Assembly: GCA_965216875.1 (NCBI GenBank)
Contig: OZ244207.1
Coordinates: 7,104,001 to 7,168,000 of the forward strand
Direction of reading: 5' to 3'
Origin: Rubripirellula sp.
GTDB lineage: Bacteria > Planctomycetota > Planctomycetia > Pirellulales > Pirellulaceae
DNA length: 64,000 bases
Shown: piece by piece, positions 6,120-34,217 of the stretch
Position numbering within the stretch: the first letter of the stretch is position 1
How the letters are laid out: every line of letters begins with the position of its first letter
Translations under genes and position numbers: made by a program
Notes under the pieces: model-generated
What the model saw: the letters and a program-made list of their open reading frames with translations, nothing else
The model's database searches: none
What the model was told of the DNA's origin: nothing

Positions 6120-7592
6120 TTAGTGTGACAGTCGGAGGTCGATGACGAATCGGGAGTCGAACCAGTTTCCGTCTCCCGCGGTGACGCCTCCGGCAAAGCC
6201 GAGTTCCCACAACCCGATGTCACTTTCCGGGCCGAGCACAAAACGTGCTCCCGGATAAATCTCGACGGCGGTCTTGCCGTCGACTCGACCGATCGTGGAT
6301 GGGTTGGCGATCGTTTCGCCGCCACTGAGGAACGAAAGTAGGCGCACCTCGAGTGTTGGGATGAATGCGAAGACATCGCTTTCGGCCGCGATCGTGCTGA
6401 CGCCCAAACCGGTCGTCAAAACTTCACCACTGGTGTCGGCGTTGCCTTTCAGCGGCACCCAATACTTCAGCTCGCCAAACCAATAGGTTTCGGGAGAGCG
6501 ACAGTGGCGAATCAAAATGCCAGGTTCGATCGCTGTGTTGCCTGTGCCAAGACCGCGACTCGTGTTCCCTTTGGCGATGTGTGTGCGAAAGATCGTCGCC
6601 ACTTTGGTGCGTTTTCCGTCAACGACAAGTCCCTGAGCACCGATCACGATATCACCCATGCCCGTTGTGTTGCCGGCCAACTCAGGATCAAGCGATCGCA
6701 TCGTGTACTCGGTGATTGCCATCACCCTTTCATTGCCCAGTGCCAAACGACAGTGAACGTCTTGGACGTTGACATTCGGATCGTGACCTGGACCGGCTGA
6801 ATCGGAGGCCCAAAAGTACTCGGCGCGGTCGGGCCGATTGAGCCCACTATCGATCTGGTAGCGGATTCCGTAGTGGGGCACCGTGATTGCCGTGTCGAGA
6901 ACGGTGGGGGCATACATGACTCGCTCATAACCAATCCCGCGGTCATGGGTTCGGCGACGTCGAAACCGCTTGCCGAGCATGAAGCGATCGAGGTCGGCTT
7001 GTCGAAACCGCTGGCGAAGTCGTCGCCAAGGTGACCAGTGGTTGGCAACCGATTGCCGTGTTCCCGAGGAGCAGTTTCCATCGCAACTGCCGATGCAGTC
7101 ACATGTCGCGGGCTGGGGGTGGAATGGTGTGTCGACTGCAAACCCTTGCGAAGGCGTCTCAATCGGAACGTTCACGCCCGGTGTCATCGGCTGCATGACT
7201 GAAGTTCCCGATCCGCTCGACATTTGCGGCTGAACTTTTTCGCCACTCGCGGGTGCGTCATTTGAAATTGGCCCATTCGGTTTCACACCCGCGGGCGGAG
7301 CGATTGATTCAACTTCGTTGCTAGCATTCGGTTTGATGCTAGCGTTGGCTGGTGGGTTGATCGCCGGTGCTGGCAGCGGCTCGATCGGCGGCGGCAGTGG
7401 TGTCGCCTCGATCAACTGAGGATCGGTGAGCGGAAGGATTGGCTCGGGCTTTGGCGGGGTTTCAGGCGGTGGTGTGTCGGCGCGTACCGATAGCGGTTCG
7501 CTTGCCGCTTTGTTGTTTTCCGATTGCGGAGCCGAACTTGCAGTGGAAGCGAGCAGCGTGGAGATCAGCAGGATCCAAGCTGTTCTGGTCAC
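6120..7592 (-). CDS. Exported protein: Pro-rich disordered N-terminus, Cys cluster, probable C-terminal outer-membrane beta-barrel-like domain
   Basis: Signal peptide MTRTAWILLISTLLASTASS-A; Pro-rich tract; CDCIGSCDGNC; amphipathic beta-strand patterns in the C-terminal about 260 aa (YWFGELKYWVP, VEIYPGARFVL, RFVIDLRLSH). The barrel call is inference. Confidence 0.6.
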   Translation of the reverse strand: MTRTAWILLISTLLASTASSAPQSENNKAASEPLSVRADTPPPETPPKPEPILPLTDPQLIEATPLPPPIEPLPAPAINPPANASIKPNASNEVESIAPPAGVKPNGPISNDAPASGEKVQPQMSSGSGTSVMQPMTPGVNVPIETPSQGFAVDTPFHPQPATCDCIGSCDGNCSSGTRQSVANHWSPWRRLRQRFRQADLDRFMLGKRFRRRRTHDRGIGYERVMYAPTVLDTAITVPHYGIRYQIDSGLNRPDRAEYFWASDSAGPGHDPNVNVQDVHCRLALGNERVMAITEYTMRSLDPELAGNTTGMGDIVIGAQGLVVDGKRTKVATIFRTHIAKGNTSRGLGTGNTAIEPGILIRHCRSPETYWFGELKYWVPLKGNADTSGEVLTTGLGVSTIAAESDVFAFIPTLEVRLLSFLSGGETIANPSTIGRVDGKTAVEIYPGARFVLGPESDIGLWELGFAGGVTAGDGNWFDSRFVIDLRLSH

Positions 7593-7769
7593 ATTTTTGC
7601 TTAGTCGAACCTTTGCTTTGTGGTCTGTGGTTGTTTGACTTCGTGAAACGAAGCGCGTGCAACAGCTAGCGACATTATCGTCTGGAATTTGATTGGCAAA
7701 TTAGCTAATCTCCGCCTCGGTCGGCGATAGGAATTGGCCCTCTTAACGCCGAGATTGGAAAGGAATCTG

Positions 7770-9233
7770 ATGCAAAATCTCGCGGTACACTGGCACGAAG
7801 GACTGTTTCTTCGACCGCACCATCTGCAGGCATGGGATCGTCATTGGCACGAACACCAAACTGCGTCGGAGCGGTGGGAGAGTCCGTATAGCTATGGCGT
7901 TGCGAGTGTGCGCATCAATCCCGACGCGCTTGCTGCAGGTTTCTTTCAGCTCGATTCGATTCGCGCGAAGATGCCTGAAGGGACACTGGTCGAACTCAGC
8001 AGTGGCGAACCGACCGAGCGCGTTGACTTGCGTGGTGGTCTATCCGAAAACGATTCAACGGCCGCCTCGATTCCGATGCAGGGCGGACGCAGTGTCGATG
8101 TTTTCTTAGCGGTGCCGAGGTTGCAACTCGGCGCAGCAAACGTTGCTGAAAACGAAACAACAGCGGCGCGTTATCGCCCACTTCAGGTCCATGTTCCCGA
8201 TGAGTCGGACGGCTCGAGCGTGGAGCCAATTCTGTTTCGGCGGATGAACGTCAAGTTGATGCTGTCGACAGACGACTTGGCCGGCTACGACACACTGCGT
8301 ATCGCGCGGCTTCGACGCGGGACGACTGGTGGCGCGATCGCGGAACTCGATGATCAATACATTCCGCCACTACTTGATTGTGGTGCGTGGCCTCAGATGC
8401 GACACCGAATGTTGTCGCCGATCCACGACCTACTGATGCGCAAAGCAGAGACGTTAGCACAGCTTGTCAACGACCAGAACGCACAACTCGATGCCACTCA
8501 GCCGGGAGATTTGCAACGAATCTTGATGCTGCAAGCACTCAATCGCGGCACGGCGATTGCCGGTGTTTTGAACCAATCCGGAGGGCTGCATCCTTGGTTA
8601 GCTTATCTGGAGCTTGCACGCATCGCCGCCGAGCTCGACCTGTTCACACCCCAACGCGCGGCACAGCCGATCGCCCCTTACGACCACGATGCGCTCGGCC
8701 CCTTGTTCCATTCCTTACGAATGCGGATCGAATCACGCATCGCATCGATCGGCCAGAACGCGTACCAACAACGTCTGCTCATTGGATCGGGAATGGGCAT
8801 GCAGGTGACGCTCGATCCACAGTGGTTGATGCCCAATTGGCGATTGGTCTTGGGTGTACGACGCGGATCGATTTCCGTTTCGACGCTTGAGTCGCTCCTG
8901 GCGCCGGGACGTTTGGATTGGAAGTGGGGTAGCGCTCGTCAGGTGGAAATGTTGTACAGCCGCCGGGCCGCTGGGGTCTCACTGACGCGCATGCAAGATA
9001 TTCCTCGATCACTACCCTCGCAGTCTGATTGGACTTACTACGAGTTTGGCGAGCGCGGTCCCGCTTGGAACGATGTCCTTGAAAGTGGAACGATCGCGAT
9101 CCGTTTGCCTGAGGAGTACGTCGACAACCGCAGCGAGTTGACGGGGAATCAAACCTTGCGTGTTCGCATCGACGATGAAATCATGCCGTTGCAATTTGCG
9201 GTCTTCGCTTTGGATCAATCGGCTCAAGAATGA
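7770..9233 (+). CDS. tssK: T6SS baseplate subunit TssK
   Basis: N-terminal VHWHEGLFLRPHHLQAWDRH signature, YIPPLL, HPWLAYLEL and YDHDALGPLF; ATG at 7770 follows an AAGGA RBS. Confidence 0.93.
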   Translation: MQNLAVHWHEGLFLRPHHLQAWDRHWHEHQTASERWESPYSYGVASVRINPDALAAGFFQLDSIRAKMPEGTLVELSSGEPTERVDLRGGLSENDSTAASIPMQGGRSVDVFLAVPRLQLGAANVAENETTAARYRPLQVHVPDESDGSSVEPILFRRMNVKLMLSTDDLAGYDTLRIARLRRGTTGGAIAELDDQYIPPLLDCGAWPQMRHRMLSPIHDLLMRKAETLAQLVNDQNAQLDATQPGDLQRILMLQALNRGTAIAGVLNQSGGLHPWLAYLELARIAAELDLFTPQRAAQPIAPYDHDALGPLFHSLRMRIESRIASIGQNAYQQRLLIGSGMGMQVTLDPQWLMPNWRLVLGVRRGSISVSTLESLLAPGRLDWKWGSARQVEMLYSRRAAGVSLTRMQDIPRSLPSQSDWTYYEFGERGPAWNDVLESGTIAIRLPEEYVDNRSELTGNQTLRVRIDDEIMPLQFAVFALDQSAQE

Positions 9234-9868
9234 ACGTCGCAGCACTCGATCGATACGCAGATCGCTACCTCGAATCGGTGATGAACCTGTTCGAGCGGTT
9301 GCAGCGCGATGAGTCGGTCGACTGCCAGACGGTCCACAAACAGCTTGCGGACCAACTGCGCCGTGGGATCGGCGAAGTCTCTTTGCGTGAAGACTGGCAG
9401 CATGTCACCTACGCGCTGGCGGCACTCACCGACGAACTCATGGTCGAGTTGCCTTGGCCTGGGCGCAATTGGTGGAACGACAACGTCTTGGAAGCCAACT
9501 TGTTCGGAACACGCATGTGCAGTGAGCGGTTTTATGCCATCGCCAAAGAGACCATGCGTGATCGGCCCGAAGTCTTGCGAGTTTTCCACGATTGCGTGCT
9601 ACTTGGTTTTCGCGGCTTTTACGCTATGGAAGCTTCGGCACCGGCAATCGCATCGGAACTCGACGTCCCACCGACGCTCGAACAATGGGTGGCGGAGGTA
9701 CAGGATCGACTTTCCAATCCCGACACGCCCAAGTCGGCAATCCAACGCCACCAAAAACTCAGTGGTGCACCTCCGCTGCGAGGTGGACGCAATGCCGTTT
9801 GGTGGTCGGTCGCGTCGGGCACGTTGGTAGCGCTCAACATCACGATCTACACGTTATTGCTTCGTTAG
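9230..9868 (+). CDS. tssL: T6SS membrane subunit TssL (DotU family), no OmpA domain
   Basis: YALAALTDE, W...LEANLFG...ERFY, CVLLGFRG and a C-terminal TM anchor; overlaps the tssK stop codon. Confidence 0.88.
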   Translation: MNVAALDRYADRYLESVMNLFERLQRDESVDCQTVHKQLADQLRRGIGEVSLREDWQHVTYALAALTDELMVELPWPGRNWWNDNVLEANLFGTRMCSERFYAIAKETMRDRPEVLRVFHDCVLLGFRGFYAMEASAPAIASELDVPPTLEQWVAEVQDRLSNPDTPKSAIQRHQKLSGAPPLRGGRNAVWWSVASGTLVALNITIYTLLLR

Positions 9869-9889
9869 CAGGAAGAGATAGGTGTCGTC

Positions 9890-11599
9890 GTGGCTGACGA
9901 GCAACCGCCAACCCTTCAACAGAAACTTGCCGCCAAGCTTCGCTTTTCCATTGCGACGTGGGCATCGATCGTCGTCGGCGCGACACTCCTTGCGCTTTTG
10001 TTGGTGACGTGGGGACTGTATTCACTTGATGCGTCGCGCGTGGCGTGGGGCATCTACATGACCCCAACACGCGCGATCAGTCTGTTCCTACTCTGGTCGG
10101 CAGCGATCGGCGTGACTTATGTGACCGTTCGCGTATGGATGCACGACGTGCCACTGTCGGATCATCGCATCAGCAGCGGTTGGAACGCTGGCACCGATGT
10201 GTTGGCCAAGCACGGTGTCTCGATCACCGACCTGCCCTGCTTTGTCGTCCTGGGGTGTCCGTCGCGTTTTGAGCAGGACTTGCTTGTAGGTCAGCGCGGT
10301 TACAGTCCAGTGCATGACACGACCGAAGCGACACCGGCAATCGATTGGCATCTGACCAAGGAATACGTGCTGCTGTTTTGCCGCGATGTTGGCGTTTATG
10401 GACGCCTGCTTCAGCAGTCGGAGGCGTTGCTCCAGCAAACTGCCACGCAAGATCCGTCGGTGACATCAAGGCAATCAGACGCGGTTGCGGCGACACCAGT
10501 CGTCAACAACATCGGCGCGGAACAACCGGCGGGCGGTTCGGAGAGCCTTCGCGCCGTCGAGAGCGCCGGTGCACCCGACGCCGAGAATCAGCAGACAGAG
10601 ACAGCGCTACAGCCCGAAACCGCAGTGGCGACGGAAACGGCAATCGAACCTGCCGCGGAAGGTTCGCCAGAGGGTGAACCGGCCCCACAACCCGACGCGA
10701 CAAGCGAACTGCTGCGATCAATCGACCGGGCAAGTCAGCTGGTCAGCGACGCTCAGCGTGTTGATCACCATTGGAACGATGTCGGCCATCAAGACGGCGA
10801 CTTTGACCCCTCACTACTTTCGTCGGCTGAGACGGCCGAGTCCCAGGAACAGCTCGCACAGCTTTGCAATCGATTGCGAAGTCAACGATTTCCCAACTGT
10901 GCCATCAACGGCACGCTGGTGATGGTTGATTCGCGGTACTTGAGCCTGTCGGACAAAATGGCTCGCAACATGGGACATGCGATTCGCGATGACTTGCAAA
11001 TGCTAAGCAGTCAACTTGGCGCATCGAGTCCCGTGACCATGGTCGTTTGCGAAACCGAATCGGAAGCGGACTACGCCGAGTTGTTTCGCCGGACGGCACT
11101 CCAGCCAAACAACACGGATGACCCGTTGTTGGGGCAAGTGTTCGATCCCGAGACGACGCCCGACGCGCCGCAGTTGAGTACCCTTGCTGATCAGACGATC
11201 CAGCAATTGCAGAGCAAGATTCAAACACTCTTTCGAGTTCCGGGGACACTCGCCCAGCCGCGCAACCATCACCTCGTTCGGTTGTTGATTCGCGGTCGCA
11301 AGTGGCGTCAATCACTGCGTACGGTGATCGTCGAAAGTTGCAGCGACGATGACTCGAGTGATGACGGCCGATCGATCGTCAGTGGTCTGTTTATTGCAGC
11401 CCTGGGACGTTCGCCCATGGTCCGCCCGCATCTCGACGCGGTTTTCAAACGCATGCTGGCTCAACAGCATTTTGTCGGCTGGACACCGGCAGCACTGGCA
11501 CAGGAAAAGATGAGTCGCCGAGTCGTCACGACACTAATGGCGACCACCCTCATGCTTGTGATCGTGTTGTTGATCCAGTTGCTGTTGATTGCGTTTTAG
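9890..11599 (+). CDS. tssM: TssM/IcmF-like protein reduced to its TM and cytoplasmic ImcF_N part
   Basis: Two N-terminal TMs; LPCFVVLG (cf. LPWYxxIG); DWHLTKEYVLL (cf. DWWFTxxAVLID); RFPNCAINGTLV (cf. RPxxPINGV); LSSQLGASSPVTMVV; ends in a TM helix; lies directly after tssL. Confidence 0.7.
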   Translation: MADEQPPTLQQKLAAKLRFSIATWASIVVGATLLALLLVTWGLYSLDASRVAWGIYMTPTRAISLFLLWSAAIGVTYVTVRVWMHDVPLSDHRISSGWNAGTDVLAKHGVSITDLPCFVVLGCPSRFEQDLLVGQRGYSPVHDTTEATPAIDWHLTKEYVLLFCRDVGVYGRLLQQSEALLQQTATQDPSVTSRQSDAVAATPVVNNIGAEQPAGGSESLRAVESAGAPDAENQQTETALQPETAVATETAIEPAAEGSPEGEPAPQPDATSELLRSIDRASQLVSDAQRVDHHWNDVGHQDGDFDPSLLSSAETAESQEQLAQLCNRLRSQRFPNCAINGTLVMVDSRYLSLSDKMARNMGHAIRDDLQMLSSQLGASSPVTMVVCETESEADYAELFRRTALQPNNTDDPLLGQVFDPETTPDAPQLSTLADQTIQQLQSKIQTLFRVPGTLAQPRNHHLVRLLIRGRKWRQSLRTVIVESCSDDDSSDDGRSIVSGLFIAALGRSPMVRPHLDAVFKRMLAQQHFVGWTPAALAQEKMSRRVVTTLMATTLMLVIVLLIQLLLIAF

Positions 11600-12170: not shown

Positions 12171-12301
12171 CGCTGTAATTCTTGAAAGATTTCGGGGAAA
12201 GTCGGCAACTAGATTTAGCCGTCGAATCACAAAAGTCGATCCAACGGTTAAGGCTGTGCAAATCGGCGCAGTCGATAACGCGTGAAACTCGATTCCCCTT
12301 C

Positions 12302-13369
12302 ATGGCTACGACGGAAACCACAATCGATCGTTTGCGATCGCCGGTTGCTTCCGATTCGCCTGCTGGAGCGAACCTGGAATACGATCCAAGGTTCGTTGAA
12401 ATGCAGCGGTTGGCCGAGGGTACGCGCGAACAACAATACGGCGAAACCATCGTACCGGCTCAACCGCCTGATTGGCGGACGATTGCCGAACTTGCAGAAC
12501 AGATCAGTGCTGAAACACGCGACCTGCGCGTCGCGACGGCGTTGATCGAATCAAAGTCGGCGACGGACGGATTGCCGGGTCTAGCCGAGGGGATGGATGT
12601 CCTCAAGCACTGGGTGTGTGACTACTGGGATAGTCTCCATCCTGAGCTCGACGAGGAAGATGGCCGCGATCCATTCGTTCGCATCAACGCACTGAATCAG
12701 CTTTGCCAGCCTGAGCGACTGCCAACCATCATCAACCAAATGACGCTTGTCGAAGCGCCACCGCACACGACCGTGTTGATGGAAGACGCGCTTTGCAACT
12801 TGGGCGATGCCAAACCTTCCACCGATGTCGAGCGTCCGACCGCATCGGAAGTCGAAGCCGCACTACTGACATTGACGGTCGAGGAGTTGCGTCAGCGATG
12901 TCAATGCACCGAAACCGCCGAGTCGTCGCTGATCGAGGTCTTGCAGTTCCTTGACGACGCGGCCGGTTCGGGAGCATGGGATGCATCGAACCTGGTCCAA
13001 CAACTCAGCAGTTGCAATGCAATCATGCAAAACCAACTTCATTCGCGATTGGCCGCATCCGATTCGGTCGTTGCGGCGGTCGCCAATGGGTCGACCAATG
13101 ATGGAGCCACGACATCTTGGGAAGATGTCAAAGTGGATCAATCGGTCCGCGACCTGAGCAAGATTCGCGTCGACACACGCGAGCAAGCTGCGGAAGTGCT
13201 CGAAGCCGCCATGAAGTACTTCGAGCGGTATGAACCGTCGAGTCCGGTGCCATTGTTGTTGCGCCGAGCGAAGCGATTGATCAACCAAGACTTTGTCGAC
13301 ATCCTGCGTGATCTAGCGCCGGATGCTTTGATTCAAGCAAAAAACCTGGCGGGAGAAATCGAATCGTAG
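12302..13369 (+). CDS. tssA: T6SS TssA (ImpA N-terminal domain)
   Basis: SPAGANLEYDPRF, TRDLRVA, YWDSLHPELD...RINAL, and C-terminal YFERYEPSSPVPLLLRRAKRL. Confidence 0.9.
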   Translation: MATTETTIDRLRSPVASDSPAGANLEYDPRFVEMQRLAEGTREQQYGETIVPAQPPDWRTIAELAEQISAETRDLRVATALIESKSATDGLPGLAEGMDVLKHWVCDYWDSLHPELDEEDGRDPFVRINALNQLCQPERLPTIINQMTLVEAPPHTTVLMEDALCNLGDAKPSTDVERPTASEVEAALLTLTVEELRQRCQCTETAESSLIEVLQFLDDAAGSGAWDASNLVQQLSSCNAIMQNQLHSRLAASDSVVAAVANGSTNDGATTSWEDVKVDQSVRDLSKIRVDTREQAAEVLEAAMKYFERYEPSSPVPLLLRRAKRLINQDFVDILRDLAPDALIQAKNLAGEIES

Positions 13370-13427: not shown

Positions 13428-13952
13428 ATGTCCGAGAGCAGCCAGAAATTCATCGCACGCAATCGGCCGCCACGCGTCCAGATTGAATACGACGTTGAAA
13501 CGTACGGTGCCGAAAAGAAGGTGCAACTTCCATTTGTGATGGGCGTGTTGGCTGACCTTTCGGGCAATCCCGCCGAGCCGCTCGAGGATGTCGCTGATCG
13601 CAAGTTCTTGGAAACGGATATCGACAACTTTGACGATCGCATGAAGTCGATGAAGCCGCGAGCGTCGTTTCGCGTGAAAAACACGTTGACTGGCGAAGGC
13701 GAGCTCGGTGTCGACTTGACCTTTGAATCGATGGACGACTTTTCGCCCGGCCGCGTGGCACAACGCGTCGAAGTGCTCGAAAAGCTGCTCAACGCTCGGA
13801 CTCACCTTTCGCAGTTGGCAACCTACATGGATGGCAAAACGGGCGCCGAGGAATTGGTCGCGCGCTTGATTAGCGATCCCGATCTGTTGAAAGAGCTCGC
13901 GGAAAAGCCACTCGACGTCGGGTCGGATGATTCGGAAGCCGAAGCCGCCTAG
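13428..13952 (+). CDS. tssB: T6SS contractile sheath small subunit TssB
   Basis: SSQKFIARNRPPRVQIEYDVETYGAEKKVQLPFVMGVLADLSG and FESMDDFSP; strong RBS. Confidence 0.97.
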   Translation: MSESSQKFIARNRPPRVQIEYDVETYGAEKKVQLPFVMGVLADLSGNPAEPLEDVADRKFLETDIDNFDDRMKSMKPRASFRVKNTLTGEGELGVDLTFESMDDFSPGRVAQRVEVLEKLLNARTHLSQLATYMDGKTGAEELVARLISDPDLLKELAEKPLDVGSDDSEAEAA

Positions 13953-14034
13953 CCGGCGCGACTCGGACACGAGACGAACACACTTAGCCAACACAAAATA
14001 GCAAGACAATCACCTACCAATCGGGGACTCAAGG

Positions 14035-15534
14035 ATGAGTGATACCAAAGCCGAATCGAACACGGACGCAGAACCACAGGCTGCCGTGACGCTGGATAAT
14101 CTCGCCGAGATGATCGAGGCTGAGTTCCGTCCACGCAGCAGCGAAGCAACAAATGCGGTCGCCACTGCGGTCAACACGCTCGCCGAGCAGCTTGTGACCA
14201 GCGAGATGGTTGTCAACGAAGACGCCATCAAGACCATCGAAGCTTTGGTCGCTGAGATTGATCGCAAGATCGGCGAGCAAATGAACGAGATCTTGCATCA
14301 CGACGAGTTCCAGAAACTCGAAGGTGCCTGGCGCGGTCTGTCGCACTTGGTCAACAACACCGAGACCGACGAGATGTTGAAGATTCGTGTCTTGAATATC
14401 TCGAAAAAGGACCTGCACAAGACGCTCAAGAAGTTCAAAGGCACGGCTTGGGATCAAAGCCCCATCTTCAAGAAACTTTACGAAGAAGAGTACGGCCAAT
14501 TTGGTGGCGAGCCCTATGGCGCACTCATTGGCGACTACTACTTTGACCACACGCCAGTGGATGTTGAATTGTTGGGCGAAATCGCGAAGGTCGCCGCGGC
14601 GGCTCACGCGCCTTTCATCGCCTCAGCCGGTCCTTCGCTGATGCACATGGAATCATGGCAAGAATTGAGCAATCCGCGCGACTTGACCAAGATCTTCCAA
14701 ACCGCCGAGTACGCGTCGTGGCGTTCGCTGCGTGATGACGAAGATTCGCGTTACGTCGGTTTGGCCATGCCACGTTTCTTGGCACGGCAACCTTATGGTG
14801 CATCGAGCAATCCCGTTGAAGAGTTTGCTTTTGAAGAGGACACCGCAGGTCCGGATCACAGTCGCTACGTTTGGTCCAACTCGGCCTACGCGTTTGCGGT
14901 CAACGTGAATCGCTCGTTCAAACTGCACGGTTGGTGCTCGCGCATTCGCGGCATCGAATCGGGCGGTTCGGTCGAAAAACTGCCTGTGCATGTCTTCCCC
15001 ACCGACGATGGTGGCGTCGACATGAAGTGTCCGACCGAGATCGCAATTAGCGACCGTCGCGAAGCGGAATTGGCCAAGAACGGCCTGATGCCGTTGGTGT
15101 TCCGCAAGAACAGTGACCTTGCGTCGTTCATCGGTGCTCAATCATTGAACAACCCGACGATCTTCGAAGATGACGACGCGTCGGCGAATGCTCAGTTGTC
15201 GGGGCGTTTGCCTTATCTGTTTGCAGTTTGCCGATTTGCTCACTACCTCAAGTGCATCGTTCGCGACAAAGTCGGTTCGTTCAAAGAACGTAACGACATG
15301 CAAATCTGGTTGAACAACTGGATCAGCCAATACGTCGACACGAACCCAGCGACCGCCTCGGAACTCGACAAGGCCCGTCGGCCTCTCGCGGGCGCCGAAG
15401 TGGTGGTTGAAGAGATCCCAGGAAACCCAGGCTACTACAGCGCCAAGTTCTTCCTGCGACCTCACTACCAACTCGAAGGTTTGACCGTTTCGCTTCGCTT
15501 GGTCAGCAAGCTGCCGTCGGCAAAGGCCGCCTAG
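14035..15534 (+). CDS. tssC: T6SS contractile sheath large subunit TssC
   Basis: ILHHDEFQKLEGAWRGL, EYGQFGGEPYG, KCPTEIAISDRREAEL, RFAHYLK, FLRPHYQLEGL. Confidence 0.97.
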   Translation: MSDTKAESNTDAEPQAAVTLDNLAEMIEAEFRPRSSEATNAVATAVNTLAEQLVTSEMVVNEDAIKTIEALVAEIDRKIGEQMNEILHHDEFQKLEGAWRGLSHLVNNTETDEMLKIRVLNISKKDLHKTLKKFKGTAWDQSPIFKKLYEEEYGQFGGEPYGALIGDYYFDHTPVDVELLGEIAKVAAAAHAPFIASAGPSLMHMESWQELSNPRDLTKIFQTAEYASWRSLRDDEDSRYVGLAMPRFLARQPYGASSNPVEEFAFEEDTAGPDHSRYVWSNSAYAFAVNVNRSFKLHGWCSRIRGIESGGSVEKLPVHVFPTDDGGVDMKCPTEIAISDRREAELAKNGLMPLVFRKNSDLASFIGAQSLNNPTIFEDDDASANAQLSGRLPYLFAVCRFAHYLKCIVRDKVGSFKERNDMQIWLNNWISQYVDTNPATASELDKARRPLAGAEVVVEEIPGNPGYYSAKFFLRPHYQLEGLTVSLRLVSKLPSAKAA

Positions 15535-16668: not shown

Positions 16669-16710
16669 GCAGCGAGACAGCCAAAGAAGAGTGCGGAAGA
16701 GACCAATCGC

Positions 16711-22756: not shown

Positions 22757-22773
22757 TAAGGGAACTGAGAATA

Positions 22774-23064
22774 ATGCCTCCAGCAGCTCGAGTTGGTGAC
22801 ATGCACACCTGCACGTCGGTCACGGGAGTCGTGCCGCACGTTGGTGGTGCGATCATTGGACCCGGAGCACCGACGGTGATGTTGGAAGGGATGCCGGCGG
22901 CCGTTGTCGGCGATGAAGCGAGCTGCAACGGGCCGGCCGACGCACTCACGATGGGATCGGGAACGGTCATGATCGAAGGCAAACCTTCGGTCAGGGTTGG
23001 AGACGAAACGGCTCATGGCGGCTCGATTGCAGCGGGCGCGCCGACGGTGATGGTCGGCGACTGA
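22774..23064 (+). CDS. PAAR domain spike-tip protein (96 aa, stand-alone)
   Basis: MPPAARVGDMHTC...PAAVVGD...PSVRVGDETAHGG. Confidence 0.95.
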   Translation: MPPAARVGDMHTCTSVTGVVPHVGGAIIGPGAPTVMLEGMPAAVVGDEASCNGPADALTMGSGTVMIEGKPSVRVGDETAHGGSIAAGAPTVMVGD

Positions 23065-26000: not shown

Positions 26001-27465
26001 GCTGTGCGAAGTGACCGATCCAGTTGCCAAACGAGTTCAGTACATTGATCTGGGCCCCGCCGTTGTTCGTCCTTCGGCAGTGATCACACCCAAGGTTGCG
26101 TTCGACGCTGCCGCACGCCGTTTAACGCTTTCGATGGACGCACACGCGAGCAGCGTCGTGGGTGGGCCTAAGACTTGGGTTCAAGTCGAAGTGCGTGATG
26201 CGTCTACCAATCAATTGATTGCCGAAGACGATGTGGTGCTCCAGCGCGGCGGCCAGGTTGCCAAGGTTTACAGTACAGCGGCAAGCAATGGTCGCCCGGT
26301 CCGAATGCGTTTGAAAGTCGACGGCTGGCCAAGCGGGTATGTGTACGACATTGATACGGCGCGTTCCGATTCCGGCGTCGCATCGGCTGCTGCCAAGCCG
26401 CGTGTCGCCATCGTCGATCCCGCTCGAGAGCTTGTTATCCGTTCAAAGACGGGACAGATCGATGCGCATGTAGCGGTCGACCTGAGTGATCGATGGTTTC
26501 GCTACGGCCAAGACGAGATCGCGGTCGGACTCGATTTGAACCATGATCGCTACCTGCGCGACGAGCCAACCGTGTCATCCAAGCATCCTGTCTCAATTCA
26601 GTTCGCTTGGGCAGGAGTGAATGAACAAGGACAACTTGGAATCAGTAACCGCGTCGGGCACGTGCAACTTCATTTGCCCGTGCGTGGTCAAGCTCGCAAC
26701 CAACGGACGCAATTGATCGCGCAGTTGCGCCGAGGCGCGGAGATCACGTGGAGCCAACCGGTGACGGTCGTTTTCGATGATGAGCCGCCGGTGATCGAGG
26801 ACGTTCAAATCACGTCGGCGATTCCCGCGTCACTGGCCGGGCCACTGCAGATTCGGGTGAGCGTTGACGACGCTGGCTTGAGCGGCGCTGCGGTGGTTCG
26901 AGCCGGATGGGCAACGCTCGGTCAGACCGAATTTACGCCTGAAGTGACAGCAATGGAGGCCCAGCGGATGCAGGATGATCGGTGGGCGGTCGATGTCCCG
27001 GTTGATGGACTTGTGCCAGGCGTCCACACATTGCTAGTACAGGCAACGGACCGCGCCGGGAATGTTGGGAAGACAAAAAGCCTTGCGGTGCAGTTGTATT
27101 CCGCCGAGCAGTTGGCGGAACTGAAAAGCCAGCAAACAACGGCTGTTCACGGCAAGGTTGCCTACGTGAAACGTCCGTTAAAAGGGATCACGGTCAAACT
27201 GCGAAAAGTGATTCCGCCGAACGAGGAATCAGAAGGCGACGCCGATCCACCAGCAGCCAACACGGCACTCGAAACGGTCAGTGACGAGGTGGCTCATCAA
27301 GCCACGACGGCGGTCGATGGCTCGTTTTGGATCAAGGATGTTCGTGCGGGAGATTACGAGCTGCAGGTCGAAGGGCTCTATCGAGGGATGCGGCAACGCA
27401 AGACGATCAAGATCGCCGTGAAACCGCCGCAACCTGCTTCAGTCGATACGATTCGCGTGGATTGA
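23098..27465 (+). CDS. Giant membrane-anchored protein: degenerate caspase-like (C14) domain, helical region, beta-sandwich/Ig-like and carboxypeptidase-regulatory-like C-terminal domains
   Basis: Basic N-terminus plus one TM; LIYLAGVA and VIVVDAVQS at the His/Cys motif positions; DKDGDGVVTGGEM; FDDEPPVI...ATDRAGNVG (Ig-like); VHGKV...TAVDGSFWIKDVRAGDYELQV. Confidence 0.6.
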   Translation: MRRSRNTNDHQSWRPIQRWRQTAASAKRLMIARAALATFLGIFLVGFLVIAFRPMVRPNAVLVTIGPKLETDLSESVQVANQSIQSIWNATEPLHSIEAASPLVLGDAQHVNQFVANHTRRGPRLIYLAGVASPVAGKAMLVSGQSGGATGQSRDAMGQSLDVGEVIQSCAKSMQPSVIVVDAVQSRRLKVGETPELTALEFVRSVSESIEQQGQAPIAVVVCQSEPEQQRSQATGTRCSETLVAALGKAADNKLPATDKDGDGVVTGGEMIDKLTALPRRRAYAGIPRLLSNRPPNYWHGVSLWPVHSIDSSSTETAQSIAEVGAKPTDEESNADSAPQQADELLQVEVTAPTLALAIKLRKLGYDTRRSEECQAITDQLRVFLDDDAVEADVIKWLAEPKIADARWDELVWMRFVCGQSHSWPLKQSLIQCRVLANRVAVETSKHKFLAQRVGKAQWMRLDAERSLASPVRGNHLEYAAGSVSDALARFRLILDDAMVIQQAERIVERDRRRAEELLSMPVRAKSPRYDYVCQRLADVVGLQTCLNRDHEDMIRDCRLLVESIQRRSDMRQTEVARTVRTATDSAPQGSDVDSNFQLFETTQIRVARSALVTELLTGNKIGAVEKKSCEATRCLAHPEAHFDQVASAVVDFRSAIGQAMRHRGRMVARSNQQRALDKLRRIALDAQRYSVDATRTQRDLQIGNARRAIRIAAKLDETIIANLSSGPEIDVQLHGSLARTDNAWLDVTVRHQTQTPAPGWIEIEYDSAVVAVAPITAPAVRASRIGEARYQTVIQQSRQNVDPNHASDDRLQQVRIDLQRIGGAYESAAINVRWVTKENVYRRSVPLELPLPQLATVALGMIGENAGDTQVWRMRANDDRFQTLNLRATDDSSDTLAVRLLAWKTPGMKPPSTLSSRAANEWLSQVAPPVELAKQESVFVKAGEYVPVRFKPHKLKPAAEPITVGTLLCEVTDPVAKRVQYIDLGPAVVRPSAVITPKVAFDAAARRLTLSMDAHASSVVGGPKTWVQVEVRDASTNQLIAEDDVVLQRGGQVAKVYSTAASNGRPVRMRLKVDGWPSGYVYDIDTARSDSGVASAAAKPRVAIVDPARELVIRSKTGQIDAHVAVDLSDRWFRYGQDEIAVGLDLNHDRYLRDEPTVSSKHPVSIQFAWAGVNEQGQLGISNRVGHVQLHLPVRGQARNQRTQLIAQLRRGAEITWSQPVTVVFDDEPPVIEDVQITSAIPASLAGPLQIRVSVDDAGLSGAAVVRAGWATLGQTEFTPEVTAMEAQRMQDDRWAVDVPVDGLVPGVHTLLVQATDRAGNVGKTKSLAVQLYSAEQLAELKSQQTTAVHGKVAYVKRPLKGITVKLRKVIPPNEESEGDADPPAANTALETVSDEVAHQATTAVDGSFWIKDVRAGDYELQVEGLYRGMRQRKTIKIAVKPPQPASVDTIRVD

Positions 27466-27473: not shown

Positions 27474-28280
27474 ATGAGCGACACGAAAACCAATCACAGG
27501 ACTCACCCGCTTCGGCGTCATCAGGTTTGCATGCTGGTCGCTGCCGTCGCGCTGTTGTGTTCGGGGTGCGCCGGATTCGCAAGGCTTGATCGTGAAGCGA
27601 ACCCACACGCCCACCTTCCGCAAGGCCATCTGGTTGGCGTGAAACAGCCGATGACACTGCCCCGGTTTTTGGGGATCGACGCGTGCGCTCGCAAACTCGG
27701 TTCCTGCGGGCGCGGCGCTGTGCTTTATTGTCAAGCGACGGGTGAGAAGATTGCGGCCGTGGTTCCTGCGCTCGAGCCACCCGCGCCGCCACTGCCGATG
27801 TCGCATCCCGCCAACGCCGAGTCGCCATCGCCGGCAGTCGCTGCCGCACACAAGATGAAAAAAGCCAAGGCCGCCAAGGCCGCCAAGATCAAAGCTGTTG
27901 CGTTCTTGGGGAGCGAAGGTTGTCTTGAAAACCCGCTCGTCGAAGAAGGCATCCTCGCCGCACTCGATGACATTTCAGCCGACGTTCGGATCGCTGCGGT
28001 CGAGGCGGTCGTCAAATCGGCCCAGCGTGGTTGCGACGACAATTGCGTTGAGTGTTCGGACGGTTGCTGTAGCGAGCTGATTCGTTGCAAGTTGACCGCG
28101 ATGGTTTTTGAAATGCGAGACAACGGGTGCTATGTCGAGCCGAGTTCCAAGGCGCGGCGACTGGCACGTTTGGCACTCGATCTGTGCGGCGGCCCCATCG
28201 ATTGCTCACCGGTAACCGTTGTCGATGGCCCCACCGAAGTCCCACCGCCCGCCGTGATGAAAGCGGTCGGAAGCGAATAG
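27474..28280 (+). CDS. Cys-rich lipoprotein with a HEAT-like repeat
   Basis: ATG at 27474; lipobox-type VALLCSG-C; ILAALDDISADVRIAAVEAV (HEAT-like); GCDDNCVECSDGCC. Confidence 0.65.
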   Translation: MSDTKTNHRTHPLRRHQVCMLVAAVALLCSGCAGFARLDREANPHAHLPQGHLVGVKQPMTLPRFLGIDACARKLGSCGRGAVLYCQATGEKIAAVVPALEPPAPPLPMSHPANAESPSPAVAAAHKMKKAKAAKAAKIKAVAFLGSEGCLENPLVEEGILAALDDISADVRIAAVEAVVKSAQRGCDDNCVECSDGCCSELIRCKLTAMVFEMRDNGCYVEPSSKARRLARLALDLCGGPIDCSPVTVVDGPTEVPPPAVMKAVGSE

Positions 28281-28291
28281 CGTGTGTCGTT

Positions 28292-28995: not shown

Positions 28996-29649
28996 ATGAC
29001 TTCCAAAGCTGAAAATCGCCACACGAAACTGAAGAAGGTTGGTAACGTCGGGACGACGGTTGCCAAACACGCGATCTCGGTCACGACGCGTGTTTCCGAT
29101 ATCAAAGAGCTGGGTGTGATCGCCGCGGGCGCGGGGGCTGCCGTCTCGGCCACGGGTGGTGGTTTGGTCATCGCGGGCGGTGTCTTGCAAGTGATTGGCA
29201 TCGGCAAGAACAGCGTTGCCGCGGTCAAGTCACATAATCACATGAAGGGACTCGAAGACATCCAAGCGCGCGCCTCATCGCTAAACGTTTCCTGCAACGG
29301 CGAAGCGATGAAGCATCAGGCGATTGTGGCGAGCATCCTGCCCTACTTGATCGAACAAAAGAAAACCAAGCGGGATCGTCGCGTGCAGAAAGCGATTCCT
29401 TGCGTTGGGTTGCTCGAATCGATTCGCGCGGTTGGCAATTGGGCTTGGAAGAAGCACAAAGGTGAGCTTGGAAAGAAACGCTATGAGTTCGCGGAAATCC
29501 TCGCGTCCCATCTGACGGTAAGTGGTTGCGCATTGGCCGCCGAAATCGTTGCGGAACTGTACGACTTCGAATCGATGGTGTGGTTGCAATCGGCTTGCGA
29601 GCCTGGACTGGCGACCGAATTGATTGCTTCGAAGATGAAGTCGGTTTAA
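28996..29649 (+). CDS. Hypothetical basic protein with a Gly/Ala-rich hydrophobic segment (candidate T6SS cargo)
   Basis: 217 aa, no signal peptide; LGVIAAGAGAAVSATGGGLVIAGGVLQVIGIG; function unknown. Confidence 0.65.
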   Translation: MTSKAENRHTKLKKVGNVGTTVAKHAISVTTRVSDIKELGVIAAGAGAAVSATGGGLVIAGGVLQVIGIGKNSVAAVKSHNHMKGLEDIQARASSLNVSCNGEAMKHQAIVASILPYLIEQKKTKRDRRVQKAIPCVGLLESIRAVGNWAWKKHKGELGKKRYEFAEILASHLTVSGCALAAEIVAELYDFESMVWLQSACEPGLATELIASKMKSV

Positions 29650-29654
29650 CGCAG

Positions 29655-32600
29655 TTACCGTGTTGCCGACACTTCTGCAACTTCCGCATGAATGCTGCCG
29701 ACGATCGGCTGGTTCTTTTCGGTACGCATCGCACTCTGTTTCATTTCGGAAACCGGGCACACCCAGAACGTGACTCGGTCTTGAGTCGCTGTTTGATCAC
29801 GAGTGGGCTCTTGCGTGTGGCTGAGTTTGCGACGGAAGAAAGTGTGCACACTTGTGTGCCGCTTGGCGTCGTACCAATGAGTCTCGTCGCAGTGGTCGTC
29901 GTTCCCTGCTTTTACGATCAGCATTGAATCGGGCGTTGCACTGGCCGCGTATCGCAGGCGTAGTTGGAACCCGTCTTGGATCGGTTCGATTCGATACTCT
30001 ATGCCCGCAAGCGACGCGAGTGGTTTGTATTGATCGTTGCGGGTTTCGAGTTCGATCGTCATGCCGGTTGGTCGCTGGTCGCAAGTCCAAGCCTTCACTT
30101 CGTATTGCAACGCCTCTTCAGGCCAACGGCGACATTCAAATTGGCCAACGGGACAGACCGTCTCGTCAAGCCAAGCGACCGACCCGGTTCGGTAGACCGA
30201 AGTCGCATCGTTGACCCATGAATGGGCATTCTTTTGCGGTGTGACTTCGAGCCAAATCAGCTCGGGACGCCGCGCTACACGATGGTCTGTTCGTTGCAGC
30301 GAAAGTTGAAGACTGAGGTTGTTTCCGATGAGCTTGGGATGATGGATGGCCAACCGTCGCATCGAAGGTGTTTCGCTGGGATGGACCAACATCGAATCGG
30401 CGGACCAGCCCGAAAGGTAACGCTCCGCGATCGGCATGCCGCCAGCAGGGTCGGTATGCAATCGAATGTGGCTACCGGGTGAAACCGGCGCGATGATGGA
30501 TTGCGTCCCAATCGAAATGTTGACCAGCTCGTTTTCTTGTTCGATTCCGCTCACGGTGATGGTCTTGCCAATTGCGGCGGTGCTCCGCGAAGTGTTGGTT
30601 TCGACTTGGTAGGCGTGGGCGCTTGCAATCTGTTGTAGTTGGCCAAGCAAGTGATTCGCTTCGGTTGCGTCAACGCAAGCCTGCCCGCCAGTTCCTCGCG
30701 CGATCGCGTCAAACTGCTCGATCGCCTCGCGGTCGTTCTTGTCCAGTCCAAAGCCGATCACATGGACTCGAACATGGTTGGCGTTGGCGAGATTGACAAC
30801 CGAATCGAGAGAGACGTCGGCGTCGGGTCTCGGGTTGAATTGATAGTTCTTGCCGTCCGACACAACAACAACATCTTTGATGACGCCATCACCCAATCGA
30901 GTGACATCGTTGATGGCGGTGGTGATGGCAAGCAGCAGCGGAGTTTGCCCCCAGGGGGCGGTCGCAGCCAGGTGCTGACGCGCCTGGCTGAATTGTTCCG
31001 CGGCGAAGCGACCGGTTGGCAATGCAACTTCGACGTCTTCGAAGGGTTGCAGCGTGGGCGGGAATGGGAACTGTTTGTGGTAACGATTCTGAAGGATGAG
31101 TTCTTTGTCTTTGCCAAGTGCCATGCGATGGCCATAAAGGACGACGCCCACGTCGGTGTTGTCGAGCGTCAGTTGCCGGAGCATTTCGATCATGGCGGAT
31201 CGCGCGGCATCAAGCTTCGTTGCACCGAGTCCCGTCGCATGGCGGGCGATCTCGGGGTTGACCGGATCGTTCATCGATGCGGAGCAATCAAACACGAACG
31301 TGACGGCGCGACCGCGGGCAACGCCATCGACAAGGGTGACCTTTGCCGACCGGGGCGCAGCACGATTGTTGGCCGAAACGCCTCGCGAAGTGTCGGTAAT
31401 CGTGACGGGAGCCCAATAGGTGTGGCCGCGAAATCGGAAGGCTGCCTCGGCAGGGTCGCCGTTCCAAGACTTCATCGCGATGTGAGATTTGCGCGGCGCG
31501 TCGTCTTTATCCGACACGGCAAGACTGCGACCATCGGTCGTGTTGTGTTGGGTGACCGTCGCAATTCCCAACCCGACTGGCACTCGGCCTGAATTGGCTG
31601 CCAACTCAATCGAGATTTTGGCAGCTTTCACACCGCCGTCTGAATAGGAGGGGTCACTCGATGCCGACAACGAGAGACCGTGATCGGCACCCTTTACGTG
31701 CTCATTGAGTTGTTTTTCGATGTTTCGCTTGCGCGACGTCCATTGGTTGGAGTCAGGCAGGATCGCGTCGGCGGCATCGAGGAGTCGCGTTGCGGCGACG
31801 GCAAAGTGAGGTTTGTCAGCATCGCGGTCGGTGCGCCAAAAACCTTCCAATGCAACTTCGGCGCGGTCAGCCAATCGGAAGCGGCGCATTCGGTTTTGCG
31901 ATTGCGCGACGGTTTCGGAAAAGGAGCCATCGAGAGTGATGGCAACAACCCGTCGCCATTGCTGTGACGCAAGGTGGACTTCGATTTCAGGCGATGCCAA
32001 TTGATGCAAGCGTGTGCGCACAAGTCGCCCGGAGACTTGCGTCTCGTCGATTTCGAGCAGTTTTGCCAAGCAACGCGAACCAAGCGGCACGGAGGTGGTC
32101 AAGCGATTTTGTGACTCGTCGGCTGCGGCACTCGCGTTGGTTGCGGCAGTGACATTCGGCTTGGTAGACAAGTCTTGGTCAAGCTTTCGCAGTTGATGAC
32201 TAGCTCGCGTGCGTTCTTGAGGAGCACTTGGTAGACGAGGGCAACGGATCGCTCCGGCAAGCCGCCCGGCGGTTGCGCCGAGATGCCCCGATGCGGTTGC
32301 CTCGAGTTCGCGGAGAGCGGCGTCGTGCTTTTGTGTTAGCGACGCAACCGATTTTTCAATGCTTTGCGAGATCGCGATCGTTTCTTCGTGCCAAGTTTCG
32401 TTCCAGGTTTGCTTGCAGGATGCGAGTGAACTCAATCGGCGATCCAGACGAACGGTGTCTCCGATGGCGCGGACGATCCGCTGCGCTTCTTTCGAATCGG
32501 CGTCGACGCCGACCTCGTCGAGCCACTGGCACAGCGGCGGTAGTTCCACGAACGAAAGGTCGCGTATGCGGGATGCGGTCGCCAGGTCGTTCATCACGTT

Positions 32601-34217
32601 GGTTTGCGCATCGACTGTGGCCGCATACTTGCGCACGATTGCATTGATGTCCGCTTTCGAAACCTCTCCGTTGCGAATGTCGGCGATGACGGTATCGGCC
32701 AAGATTCGCCACTGCGTTTCCGCAGGCTGGGCCAGGTGGTTGGCGGCGGGGAAAAGCGAATCGGGTTGTTCGCGAAGCGTTTCAAGCCATCGAGCTCGCG
32801 TGTTGGCGACCGATTGAATGGACGACGCATCCTGCCAAAACAGCGAATGATCGTTCGCCGCCATCAAGTGCAAAGCGGGAACCGGTGTCAATTGATCCTT
32901 CGCGATCGAATCAATCGCACCGCGGACCGTTTCAAGTGAGGGTCGCTTGGCGATCGCGTTCCAGATTGTCGAAGCGGCACGAAGGGATTGCAGGTCCGGG
33001 CAACCGGCCGAGGCTTGCTGGTGGCTGTGTTGCATCTGTTGCAACTGAGTCAATTGGCGATCGAGCCGGTTGTACCATCGTTCGCTTGATCGGCGAGCCG
33101 CGATGCCGCCATAGGTGGATTGCCCGAGCGCATGCAGCGTTCGCTGAATTTGCGCCCATTGGTGCATCGCGTTTTCGAGCGGAAACGTATCCCGTATTTC
33201 ATCCGCTTTGGCCATCGCGGCATCGAATCGCTCGATGGAAGCCGGACTCGGTGCCGCGGTGCGTTTAGTCGGCAGACCGGTTGCATCAGGGTCGACCTGT
33301 CCCAGCAACACATGACGCGTCGCGCCCGTAGCGTAGAGGGTTGGTGACTGCAGTTTCCCACGATGCTTGATCGACCATCGCTCGGTGTGGTGGCGCACAA
33401 ACTGAAAGAGTTCCTCGGAATCAACCCAGCCATCGTGCTGCGAATGTTCGAAACCGTCGGCAGCGCCGGTGAGCCCTTGTGCCAAGAAGCTGGTAAAGAT
33501 GTCACCTTGTCCGAGCTGTGAATGGAGGCTGCGTTGCCGTGATGCACACGACGACATCACCACGACGCGCGAATCGGGGTGACGCTGGTGATGGTCTTGG
33601 ACCAACAGGCGAAGCCGATTGTCGAAATCGTTTTCAGCGATTCCAGCCGACCATTGCGATCGAAGTTTGCCACACTCCAATAGCAACAAAGCAGGTTTGT
33701 TGTGACGTGCTGATTGGGTGGCTGCGATGCGGTCAAGAAGCAGACGAACAGGAAACCAAGTTGACGCGTCATCGGCGGTTGCGTTCGGCGGGATCCAACA
33801 GGGCTGGCCTTGATCGTCGACGGCGCCGTGCAAGTTGATGTAAAAGACAACGGCGCTGGCACCCGGTGCTGAAAAGGCATCATCGATCCGCGTATCGGCT
33901 TTGTCCCAGAAACCAGCGGCCAAGCGATCGATCGACGAAAGTGATTGAACTTGAAACGATCGTGCGCCAAGCGACTGGATGTGCCCCAGGTCTTCTTCGA
34001 CCCAGGCATTGAGATCCCAGTTGGGACCGTACGACGACGTGAGCGTCAGGATCGGAGTTCGTTCGGGGCGGGCCAACAGGTGGGTAGCGAAGGCGATCAA
34101 CACCATCGAAAGCGCGCAAAGGCAGAGCCCGATTCGAATCGGTCGTCGCTGCCTACGGTGCGAGCTGGTATTGATCAAGTATTCGTTGCGACTCCTACGA
34201 CCGGCAAAGGTTGCCAA
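29655..34217 (-). CDS. Giant membrane-anchored protein with caspase-like (C14) and vWA domains (start uncertain)
   Basis: Arg-rich N-terminus plus TM; VFYINLHG, LLLLECG, VVMSSC, IFTSFLAQGLTGAAD...DGWVDSEEL...QSP (caspase-fold order); vWA MIDAS FVFDCSASM, GQTPL, VVVSDG, VHVIGFG. Confidence 0.8.
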   Translation of the reverse strand: MATFAGRRSRNEYLINTSSHRRQRRPIRIGLCLCALSMVLIAFATHLLARPERTPILTLTSSYGPNWDLNAWVEEDLGHIQSLGARSFQVQSLSSIDRLAAGFWDKADTRIDDAFSAPGASAVVFYINLHGAVDDQGQPCWIPPNATADDASTWFPVRLLLDRIAATQSARHNKPALLLLECGKLRSQWSAGIAENDFDNRLRLLVQDHHQRHPDSRVVVMSSCASRQRSLHSQLGQGDIFTSFLAQGLTGAADGFEHSQHDGWVDSEELFQFVRHHTERWSIKHRGKLQSPTLYATGATRHVLLGQVDPDATGLPTKRTAAPSPASIERFDAAMAKADEIRDTFPLENAMHQWAQIQRTLHALGQSTYGGIAARRSSERWYNRLDRQLTQLQQMQHSHQQASAGCPDLQSLRAASTIWNAIAKRPSLETVRGAIDSIAKDQLTPVPALHLMAANDHSLFWQDASSIQSVANTRARWLETLREQPDSLFPAANHLAQPAETQWRILADTVIADIRNGEVSKADINAIVRKYAATVDAQTNVMNDLATASRIRDLSFVELPPLCQWLDEVGVDADSKEAQRIVRAIGDTVRLDRRLSSLASCKQTWNETWHEETIAISQSIEKSVASLTQKHDAALRELEATASGHLGATAGRLAGAIRCPRLPSAPQERTRASHQLRKLDQDLSTKPNVTAATNASAAADESQNRLTTSVPLGSRCLAKLLEIDETQVSGRLVRTRLHQLASPEIEVHLASQQWRRVVAITLDGSFSETVAQSQNRMRRFRLADRAEVALEGFWRTDRDADKPHFAVAATRLLDAADAILPDSNQWTSRKRNIEKQLNEHVKGADHGLSLSASSDPSYSDGGVKAAKISIELAANSGRVPVGLGIATVTQHNTTDGRSLAVSDKDDAPRKSHIAMKSWNGDPAEAAFRFRGHTYWAPVTITDTSRGVSANNRAAPRSAKVTLVDGVARGRAVTFVFDCSASMNDPVNPEIARHATGLGATKLDAARSAMIEMLRQLTLDNTDVGVVLYGHRMALGKDKELILQNRYHKQFPFPPTLQPFEDVEVALPTGRFAAEQFSQARQHLAATAPWGQTPLLLAITTAINDVTRLGDGVIKDVVVVSDGKNYQFNPRPDADVSLDSVVNLANANHVRVHVIGFGLDKNDREAIEQFDAIARGTGGQACVDATEANHLLGQLQQIASAHAYQVETNTSRSTAAIGKTITVSGIEQENELVNISIGTQSIIAPVSPGSHIRLHTDPAGGMPIAERYLSGWSADSMLVHPSETPSMRRLAIHHPKLIGNNLSLQLSLQRTDHRVARRPELIWLEVTPQKNAHSWVNDATSVYRTGSVAWLDETVCPVGQFECRRWPEEALQYEVKAWTCDQRPTGMTIELETRNDQYKPLASLAGIEYRIEPIQDGFQLRLRYAASATPDSMLIVKAGNDDHCDETHWYDAKRHTSVHTFFRRKLSHTQEPTRDQTATQDRVTFWVCPVSEMKQSAMRTEKNQPIVGSIHAEVAEVSATR

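Follow-up and report, generated by a model that had tools for sequence, protein, structure and literature searches.

A type VI secretion system (T6SS) locus lies in a 64,000-nucleotide stretch of the genome of a Rubripirellula sp. of the Pirellulaceae (contig OZ244207.1, positions 7,104,001 to 7,168,000; hereafter the window). In canonical systems, TssK docks on TssL and TssM, and the periplasmic part of TssM and TssJ form the channel (PMC10433429, PMC10781749; here and below, comparisons draw on excerpts of the cited articles). In the window the dock is retained, and periplasmic TssM and TssJ are lost together. Two large proteins, for which the working labels BigA and BigB were coined in this analysis, and an exported HEAT-repeat protein are inherited with the T6SS instead. 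The system is probably a T6SS-i variant with a substitute periplasmic complex, whose binding to the dock we infer from sequence. With slightly less assurance, we propose that it represents a new membrane-complex architecture, in which the TssL/TssM dock is kept, the channel would be built of a caspase-fold pair and the HEAT protein, and the integrin-like metal site of a von Willebrand factor A (VWA) domain may couple envelope contact to firing. An earlier note on this DNA had proposed a planctomycete-specific complex of four envelope proteins, the fourth being a beta-barrel; two computable attempts to refute a substitute membrane complex failed, but the barrel and the phylum-wide scope did not hold. 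The genes on which the argument turns are:

7734..9233, plus strand: TssK, the baseplate-to-membrane connector (PF05936, 255 bits; TIGR03353, 271 bits)
9230..9868, plus strand: TssL/DotU, a short form with a C-terminal membrane helix (hydropathy) and without peptidoglycan-binding domain (PF09850, 90.7 bits)
9890..11599, plus strand: short TssM, 569 residues (PF14331, 48 bits)
23098..27465, plus strand: BigA, 1455 residues (hhalign to the BigB N-terminal domain, 98.9%; topology; co-inheritance)
27474..28280, plus strand: exported Cys-rich HEAT-repeat protein, with a lipobox in this genome (HEAT matches; co-inheritance)
29655..34217, minus strand: BigB, 1520 residues (AlphaFold2 model, fold searches, counts of metal-ion-dependent adhesion site (MIDAS) residues, co-inheritance)
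6120..7592, minus strand: exported FapF/COG4313-type barrel protein, divergent from tssK (AlphaFold2, Foldseek)

In TssM, two N-terminal helices are followed by an IcmF-related_N domain that is degenerate (48 bits against a cut-off of 25) and by a third helix at residues 549-567, and the stop codon falls two residues past that helix. The cytoplasmic domain is nucleoside triphosphatase-like and lacks Walker motifs; in an alignment these motifs are present in three full-length TssM proteins and lost from the short forms. The gap between tssM and tssA, about 700 bases with palindromes, is too small for a periplasmic half. A frameshifted tssM was rejected on the open frames and the common end point of the aligned short TssM proteins, 16/16 of which stop within a few residues of helix 3. 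Across the genome, a single contig estimated as 99.09% complete, there is no PF12790 (TssJ) match at E<=1 and no IcmF_C match over cut-off; profiles derived from planctomycete TssJ-like proteins or from periplasmic halves of TssM also matched nothing, and no small lipoprotein gene lies 5' of tssK. Neither Pfam model is sensitive in this phylum: other classes often have a small gene ahead of tssK, of which PF12790 matches two of the eight tested, and IcmF_C is found in 21 of 68 T6SS genomes. Because both models miss planctomycete members, the stop codon and the gene map are the direct evidence for truncation, and a TssJ too divergent for the profiles could conceivably exist elsewhere in the genome. 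The description in the earlier note (TssM without a periplasmic part, TssL kept, tssJ not recognisable) agrees with the stop codon, the gene map and the genome searches; a genome-wide check revealed neither a canonical tssJ nor a full-length tssM.

The truncation is a lineage-wide trait. In a phylum sample of 301 genomes, 68 of them with TssC, short TssM (frames of 545-591 residues) is found in all six T6SS genomes of the window's class, whereas 61 of the 62 in other classes have TssM frames of 1051-1736 residues and one gave no match. At ten fetched loci from those other classes, TssM extends far past the last membrane helix and none of the four envelope genes was found. The variant is thus not planctomycete-wide: other classes keep a full-length TssM, often behind a TssJ-like gene. 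A family sample of 201 genomes comprised 78 TssK-positive (about 40%) and 123 TssK-negative ones. The TssM profile matches 78 of the 80 family genomes searched (the TssK-positive ones plus G393 and G399); short frames span 54 genera, and all family frames are at most 782 residues long, save one of 1045 in genome G337. A second high-scoring TssK occurs in G337 as well, together with a TssJ that alone passes the cut-off among 79 family genomes; this second, canonical system acts as an internal positive control. In a TssK tree, 20 short-TssM systems fall on one side of a branch and ten canonical ones on the other, with a Shimodaira-Hasegawa-like approximate likelihood ratio test value of 99, in what is a quick, midpoint-rooted tree with long branches among the canonical rows. 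Homolog names include cultured Rhodopirellula, Rubripirellula and Blastopirellula species and also Neorhodopirellula; a TssM scan of named genomes gave one weak match. In G405 (L056-L057), tssF, tssM and the big genes are in pieces, probably through sequencing errors.

The three envelope proteins track the T6SS through the family. The BigA C-terminal profile matches 77/78 TssK-positive and 6/123 TssK-negative genomes, BigB 75/78 and 15/123, and the HEAT protein 74/78 and 3/123. Several apparent exceptions among the TssK-negative genomes carry T6SS genes (G393, G453, G399). Of the three negative HEAT carriers, G393 has TssC and TssF, G453 has TssF, and G346 is a 360-contig assembly in which neither was found; one of the four HEAT misses, G310, has a weak homolog adjoining its barrel gene. 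The six negative BigA matches are G393, G453, three weak partial ones and G448; for BigB, the negatives listed by position (all but five genomes) amount, apart from G393 and G399, to lone VWA or caspase-like domains within short frames. Where a genome has two TssK, the HEAT gene is mostly present twice as well. Across the phylum sample, strong HEAT-protein matches (E<=2e-15) occur exactly in the six short-TssM genomes, with weak partial ones in eight T6SS-negative genomes. The full BigA profile matches 51/67 T6SS genomes of the phylum, in frames of 1460-1910 residues in the five short-TssM genomes searched and as single shared domains only in the other 62. The barrel is found in 47/78 TssK-positive and 13/123 TssK-negative genomes; its 25 strongest matches are all T6SS-positive, and the weaker ones include general paralogs. 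A 51-row profile did not find it in eight of ten well-assembled T6SS genomes, seven of which had been chosen as missed by a first search. Co-conservation with the T6SS, envisaged for all four genes, thus holds for BigA, BigB and the HEAT gene but not for the barrel. Since the sampled genomes are related, what these counts demonstrate is tight joint inheritance, which may go back to a single origin, and not a series of independent events. Clustering of 951 unassigned open reading frames of the fetched loci brought out no further conserved partner. Genome G399 (98% complete, 90 contigs; L142 = G399:C2:429000-444999, and L129) may represent a relic, an assembly gap or a stand-alone membrane module.

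Gene order was compared at 60 further loci, most centred on the HEAT gene and 20 picked at Big or barrel matches, a choice that favours adjacency somewhat. Among 47 distinct HEAT genes (48 entries), 28 have a co-oriented Big neighbour: 14 in the order BigA>HEAT>BigB, five after BigA and nine before BigB. The three genes often form one operon. The short tssM of G218 lies between two Big genes, and in many other loci Big genes lie beside tssK or tssM. The barrel gene is divergent from tssK or behind tssA in 10/21 tssK-centred loci and also in G204, from another family; in other loci it adjoins the HEAT gene. In relatives, a small conserved gene separates tssM from tssA; it was considered as TssJ and rejected, as it encodes a sigma-70-family factor. 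This gene (L020:1077-1793 and five other loci) marks a subtype mostly lacking the barrel and often having a second TssC-like gene. In two genera (L082, L083, L084, L088), HEAT genes stand beside surface proteins of 1700-2500 residues with dockerin and planctomycete-extracellular motifs. Seven genomes and G204 encode, close to HEAT or barrel genes, an S-adenosylmethionine methyltransferase with MethyTransf_Reg and PKMT domains (e.g., L091:10775-12310, L143:10799-12379), which is absent from the window.

The two proteins of about 1500 residues are single-helix proteins, as the earlier note described them, with the correction that they are paralogs sharing an N-terminal domain. Each has one helix near the N-terminus and no second helix. 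Lys and Arg are in excess before the helix relative to after it in 28/31 BigA and 46/47 BigB, and because of this flanking charge the positive-inside rule predicts an N-in/C-out topology that would place the bulk of both proteins in the periplasm. Their cytoplasmic tails carry a W-[RK] motif in 24/31 and 33/47 cases, respectively. BigA begins with a cytoplasmic W-R motif with the conserved Trp W19, followed by a caspase-like domain (assigned by its profile match to BigB), a helical part, beta-sandwich repeats and an Ig-like and CarboxypepD_reg-like end, for which Pfam matches are weak. BigB comprises a caspase fold, a helical part of about 520 residues, a beta-sandwich, a VWA domain and a beta-rich end. 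Its residues 52-1250 were modelled with AlphaFold2 (predicted local distance difference test score, pLDDT, 88); model residues 1-257 match caspase-3 (4jj7) with Z 17.6 and a root-mean-square deviation (rmsd) of 3.4 over 208 residues, and the VWA domain gives Z 21.5 and rmsd 2.0 over 176. The VWA domain has the DxSxS...T...D motif, and the MIDAS is intact and nearly invariant (D 46, S 46, S 43 and D 47 of 47). Of the caspase dyad, BigB keeps the His in 38/47 and the Cys in 21/47 proteins, with both kept in this genome. Because the Cys is replaced in 26/47 BigB and the dyad is absent from BigA, proteolysis is apparently not the conserved function of the Big proteins.

The upstream TTG start of BigB at 34217 is backed by relatives; the database copy, P0061, is 37 residues shorter. 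Sequence searches of the PDB returned generic VWA, Ig and HEAT matches only. The idea that the Big proteins are split-off TssM periplasmic halves found no profile match, and TssM is not among the fold matches listed, which barely test the helical part. Likewise, the transthyretin-like end of BigA did not match a five-row TssJ profile and was rejected as a fused TssJ. A complex prediction for short TssM with BigA 1-310 scored 0.20 (mark 0.32) and counts neither way.

The HEAT protein has an exported HEAT core with 7-21 cysteines among relatives. The label of lipoprotein given to it earlier fits the lipobox in this genome, but about half of the relatives, judged by eye, have a plain signal peptide. 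It is a candidate for a functional stand-in for TssJ. The exported beta-barrel-like protein recognised earlier at 6120-7592 is borne out by an AlphaFold2 model (pLDDT 81.6), which has a Pro-rich linker and a C-terminal 12-stranded beta-barrel, and by Foldseek, whose top matches are FapF (5o67, 5o65, 5o68) and COG4313 (4rl8), with E 1.2e-7 and template modelling scores of 0.54-0.63. FapF forms a trimer and transports polypeptides. The likeness to FapF and COG4313 (Pput2725) lies in a 12-stranded barrel with an N-terminal helix, and relatives give weak PF13557 matches; by contrast, identity is about 12%, no fap genes lie nearby, and the gene is linked to tssK, tssA or the HEAT gene. The barrel was rejected as the needle channel, as 12 strands are too narrow for an Hcp tube 80 angstrom across (PMC10433429) and its presence is patchy. 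Since Hcp would not fit through it and many systems lack it, the barrel is an accessory component and not part of the core, in which the earlier note had included it.

The tail and baseplate form one continuous run from tssK (7734) to PAAR (23064). All frames are open and have family matches, each gene occurs in one copy in the genome, and the reading-frame coordinates were confirmed in the window; the earlier view of these genes as intact stands. TssK, TssA, TssB, TssC, TssE, TssF, TssG and VgrG exceed NCBIfam cut-offs; TssL, Hcp and PAAR exceed those of Pfam and fall below those of NCBIfam. The remaining features are:

12182..13369, plus strand: TssA, likely start ATG 12302 (TIGR03363, 217.7 bits)
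13428..15534, plus strand: sheath proteins TssB (13428-13952) and TssC (14035-15534) (TIGR03358 and TIGR03355, over cut-off)
15625..16104, plus strand: Hcp tube, the genome's only copy (PF05638, 95 bits)
16114..19803, plus strand: baseplate TssE, TssF and TssG (TIGR03357, TIGR03359 and TIGR03347, over cut-off)
19811..21808, plus strand: VgrG spike without effector extension, single copy (TIGR03361, 562 bits)
21821..22756, plus strand: FHA-like and DUF6931 protein (PF22011, 86.8 bits)
22705..23064, plus strand: PAAR tip protein (PF05488, 77 bits)
28996..29649, plus strand: hydrophobic 217-residue protein, candidate effector (no Pfam family at 0.01)

The FHA-like/DUF6931 gene recurs in 9/21 loci of relatives, mostly directly after vgrG. 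Relatives of the 217-residue protein adjoin the HEAT gene in G360 and G316; no immunity gene is evident for this protein, the sole and doubtful effector candidate in the genome. A ClpV profile search, as suggested in the earlier note, yielded nothing over cut-off in the genome (best 824 bits against 885), and its two strong matches begin like ClpB and ClpC; TagJ was not found in the genome either. ClpV is missing from four of five relatives searched, the four close ones, and present in G313. Three tandem genes for unusual Clp-like ATPases, with frames of 776-1183 residues and non-Clp N-terminal regions, lie outside the window in the same genome, at G000:C1:6228721-6237867.

Next to the barrel gene (3648-5945) is a Ser/Thr membrane kinase with a TPR end; kinases recur at related loci and are abundant in the genome. 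Divergent from bigB, the segment 34598-37593 encodes a single-pass squalene-cyclase-repeat protein and an exported alpha/beta hydrolase, which are not conserved at related loci. The intergenic regions hold elements resembling repetitive extragenic palindromes: a 233-nucleotide direct repeat pair, 93% alike with internal palindromes (28292-28809), and hairpins after tssM (11707-11868). A sigma-70 promoter scan found one site, with 2.5 expected.

In the proposed mechanism, the membrane complex would have been rebuilt once in an ancestor of the lineage. TssL and the shortened TssM, both retained, would still serve TssK and the baseplate as their dock at the inner membrane and in the cytoplasm. 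BigA and BigB would join them in the inner membrane and build a periplasmic scaffold around the spike, their periplasmic parts of 1400-1800 residues providing a caspase-fold base, a long helical part and a distal beta-sandwich with VWA. The disulfide-rich HEAT protein would be the outer-membrane-side partner in the role of TssJ, and the barrel an optional outer-membrane anchor. In this subclade the sheath is probably recycled by ClpB, as in Francisella, because ClpV is absent from most relatives searched and the T6SS-ii of Francisella offers a precedent for recycling by ClpB (PMC5924787).

Several observations weigh against a substitute complex. The physical interaction of the Big and HEAT proteins with the dock is one that we infer; BigA and BigB resemble neither TssJ nor the periplasmic halves of TssM in sequence (hhalign probability <1%), a lipid anchor is missing from half of the HEAT proteins, and there is no evident gene for an outer-membrane pore that would be large enough. 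As many as 19/47 HEAT genes have no Big neighbour within 2.5 kb, and some are far from all T6SS genes. G448 has a strong BigA match in a 761-residue frame with no TssF found, and G399 has BigB in the vicinity of tssL and a short tssM, with neither TssK nor TssF found. The co-inheritance would fit any T6SS-dedicated accessory module, and the genomes are kin, not independent, and possibly reflect one origin. This genome lacks ClpV and TagJ and has a single poor effector candidate. Finally, the VWA domain and beta-sandwich of BigB are arranged as in pilus-tip adhesins and integrin heads, a modelled likeness that suits sensing or adhesion as well as scaffolding.

The main rival, which we consider unlikely, runs as follows: TssL and the short TssM would anchor to the inner membrane only, the spike would punch through the wall and outer membrane without a channel, and BigA, BigB and the HEAT protein would be a contact-sensing or positioning module, like TslA or TagQRST. 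The T6SS-iv of Amoebophilus, described as working without TssJML or ClpV (PMC10433429), makes an anchor of this kind conceivable, and periplasmic target-recognition factors are known (PMC13584744); the intact MIDAS, the closest folds among adhesins and integrins, and the recurrence of a Ser/Thr kinase and an FHA protein at these loci are all consistent with sensing. However, accessory factors are usually patchy, whereas 95-99% of the systems have these proteins, which are confined to systems with a short TssM, and two proteins of 1500 residues are large for sensors. Less probable still is a system that is not an outward weapon and instead delivers cargo to the periplasm or serves the biogenesis of surface structures, the Big proteins being anchored or self-processed surface adhesins that it handles. 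The genome's one extension-less VgrG, one Hcp, one PAAR and one doubtful effector would fit such a role, as would the BigB caspase residues, both of which are kept in this genome, the resemblance of the barrel to the amyloid exporter FapF, and the retention of the membrane module in G399 with TssK and TssF undetected. Yet the spike, PAAR and sheath are conserved, with a ClpV-like ATPase and TagJ in many relatives, as expected of a machine that fires and is recycled, and the catalytic Cys is replaced in most BigB, with no dyad in BigA. That the T6SS is decaying, or that it relies on canonical TssJ and TssM from another locus and its neighbours are unrelated to it, would account for the missing ClpV and TagJ and the lost Walker motifs but is very improbable and already largely refuted by the intact frames, the same truncation point in all aligned short TssM proteins, short frames across so many genera, the lack of anything canonical elsewhere in the genome, and a ClpV loss that close relatives share.

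The window system was compared with the closest known ones. Canonical T6SS-i, as in enteroaggregative E. coli or other Planctomycetota classes, has the same tail, baseplate, TssA, TssK, TssL, cytoplasmic and membrane part of TssM, and tssK-tssL-tssM order; the window system lacks TssJ, periplasmic TssM and the TssM Walker motifs, and has three unrelated co-inherited envelope proteins instead; three defining features of T6SS-i, namely TssJ, periplasmic TssM and ClpV, are missing from it. The T6SS-iii of Bacteroidota likewise lacks TssJ and periplasmic TssM and uses other membrane proteins (PMC10781749). Its TssNQOPR complex combines single-pass periplasmic proteins with a VWA-bearing lipoprotein (PMC10781749), and its VWA domain (TssR) and Ig-like/PKD domains (TssP) have counterparts in the Big proteins. 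By contrast, T6SS-iii is described as lacking TssL and TssM, both of which the window system keeps as a dock, and its VWA resides in a lipoprotein, not in a single-pass protein (PMC10781749); neither Pfam nor NCBIfam reports TssN, TssO, TssP, TssQ or TssR families for the window proteins. The Acinetobacter T6SS (TsmK, TslA, TagX) is also a T6SS-i without TssJ and with lineage-specific compensation, but it keeps the periplasmic part of TssM (PMC13584744). TagP of the Pseudomonas putida K1-T6SS is a TssM derivative without the periplasmic C-terminal domain; it is, however, an accessory gene with a peptidoglycan-binding domain (PMC10433429), whereas here no TssM exists besides the short form, which carries nothing beyond helix 3. 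Unlike T6SS-iv and T6SS-ii, the window system retains TssK, TssL, part of TssM and canonical T6SS-i tail proteins. The literature searched contains no description of this membrane complex, though subscription papers or supplements may mention it; the only direct remark found credits R. baltica with numerous T6SS-related genes (PMC5394234).

Within the T6SS, it is the membrane complex that evolution has exchanged: TssJLM, TssNQOPR or none. If the proposed architecture is true, replacement of the periplasmic half alone, with the dock left in place, would demonstrate the modularity of TssM and how an existing baseplate can acquire a new channel. The variant is present in about 40% of the sampled genomes (78/201) of a common aquatic family, cultured species included, and may bear on how machines cross the variable planctomycete periplasm (PMC5394234).

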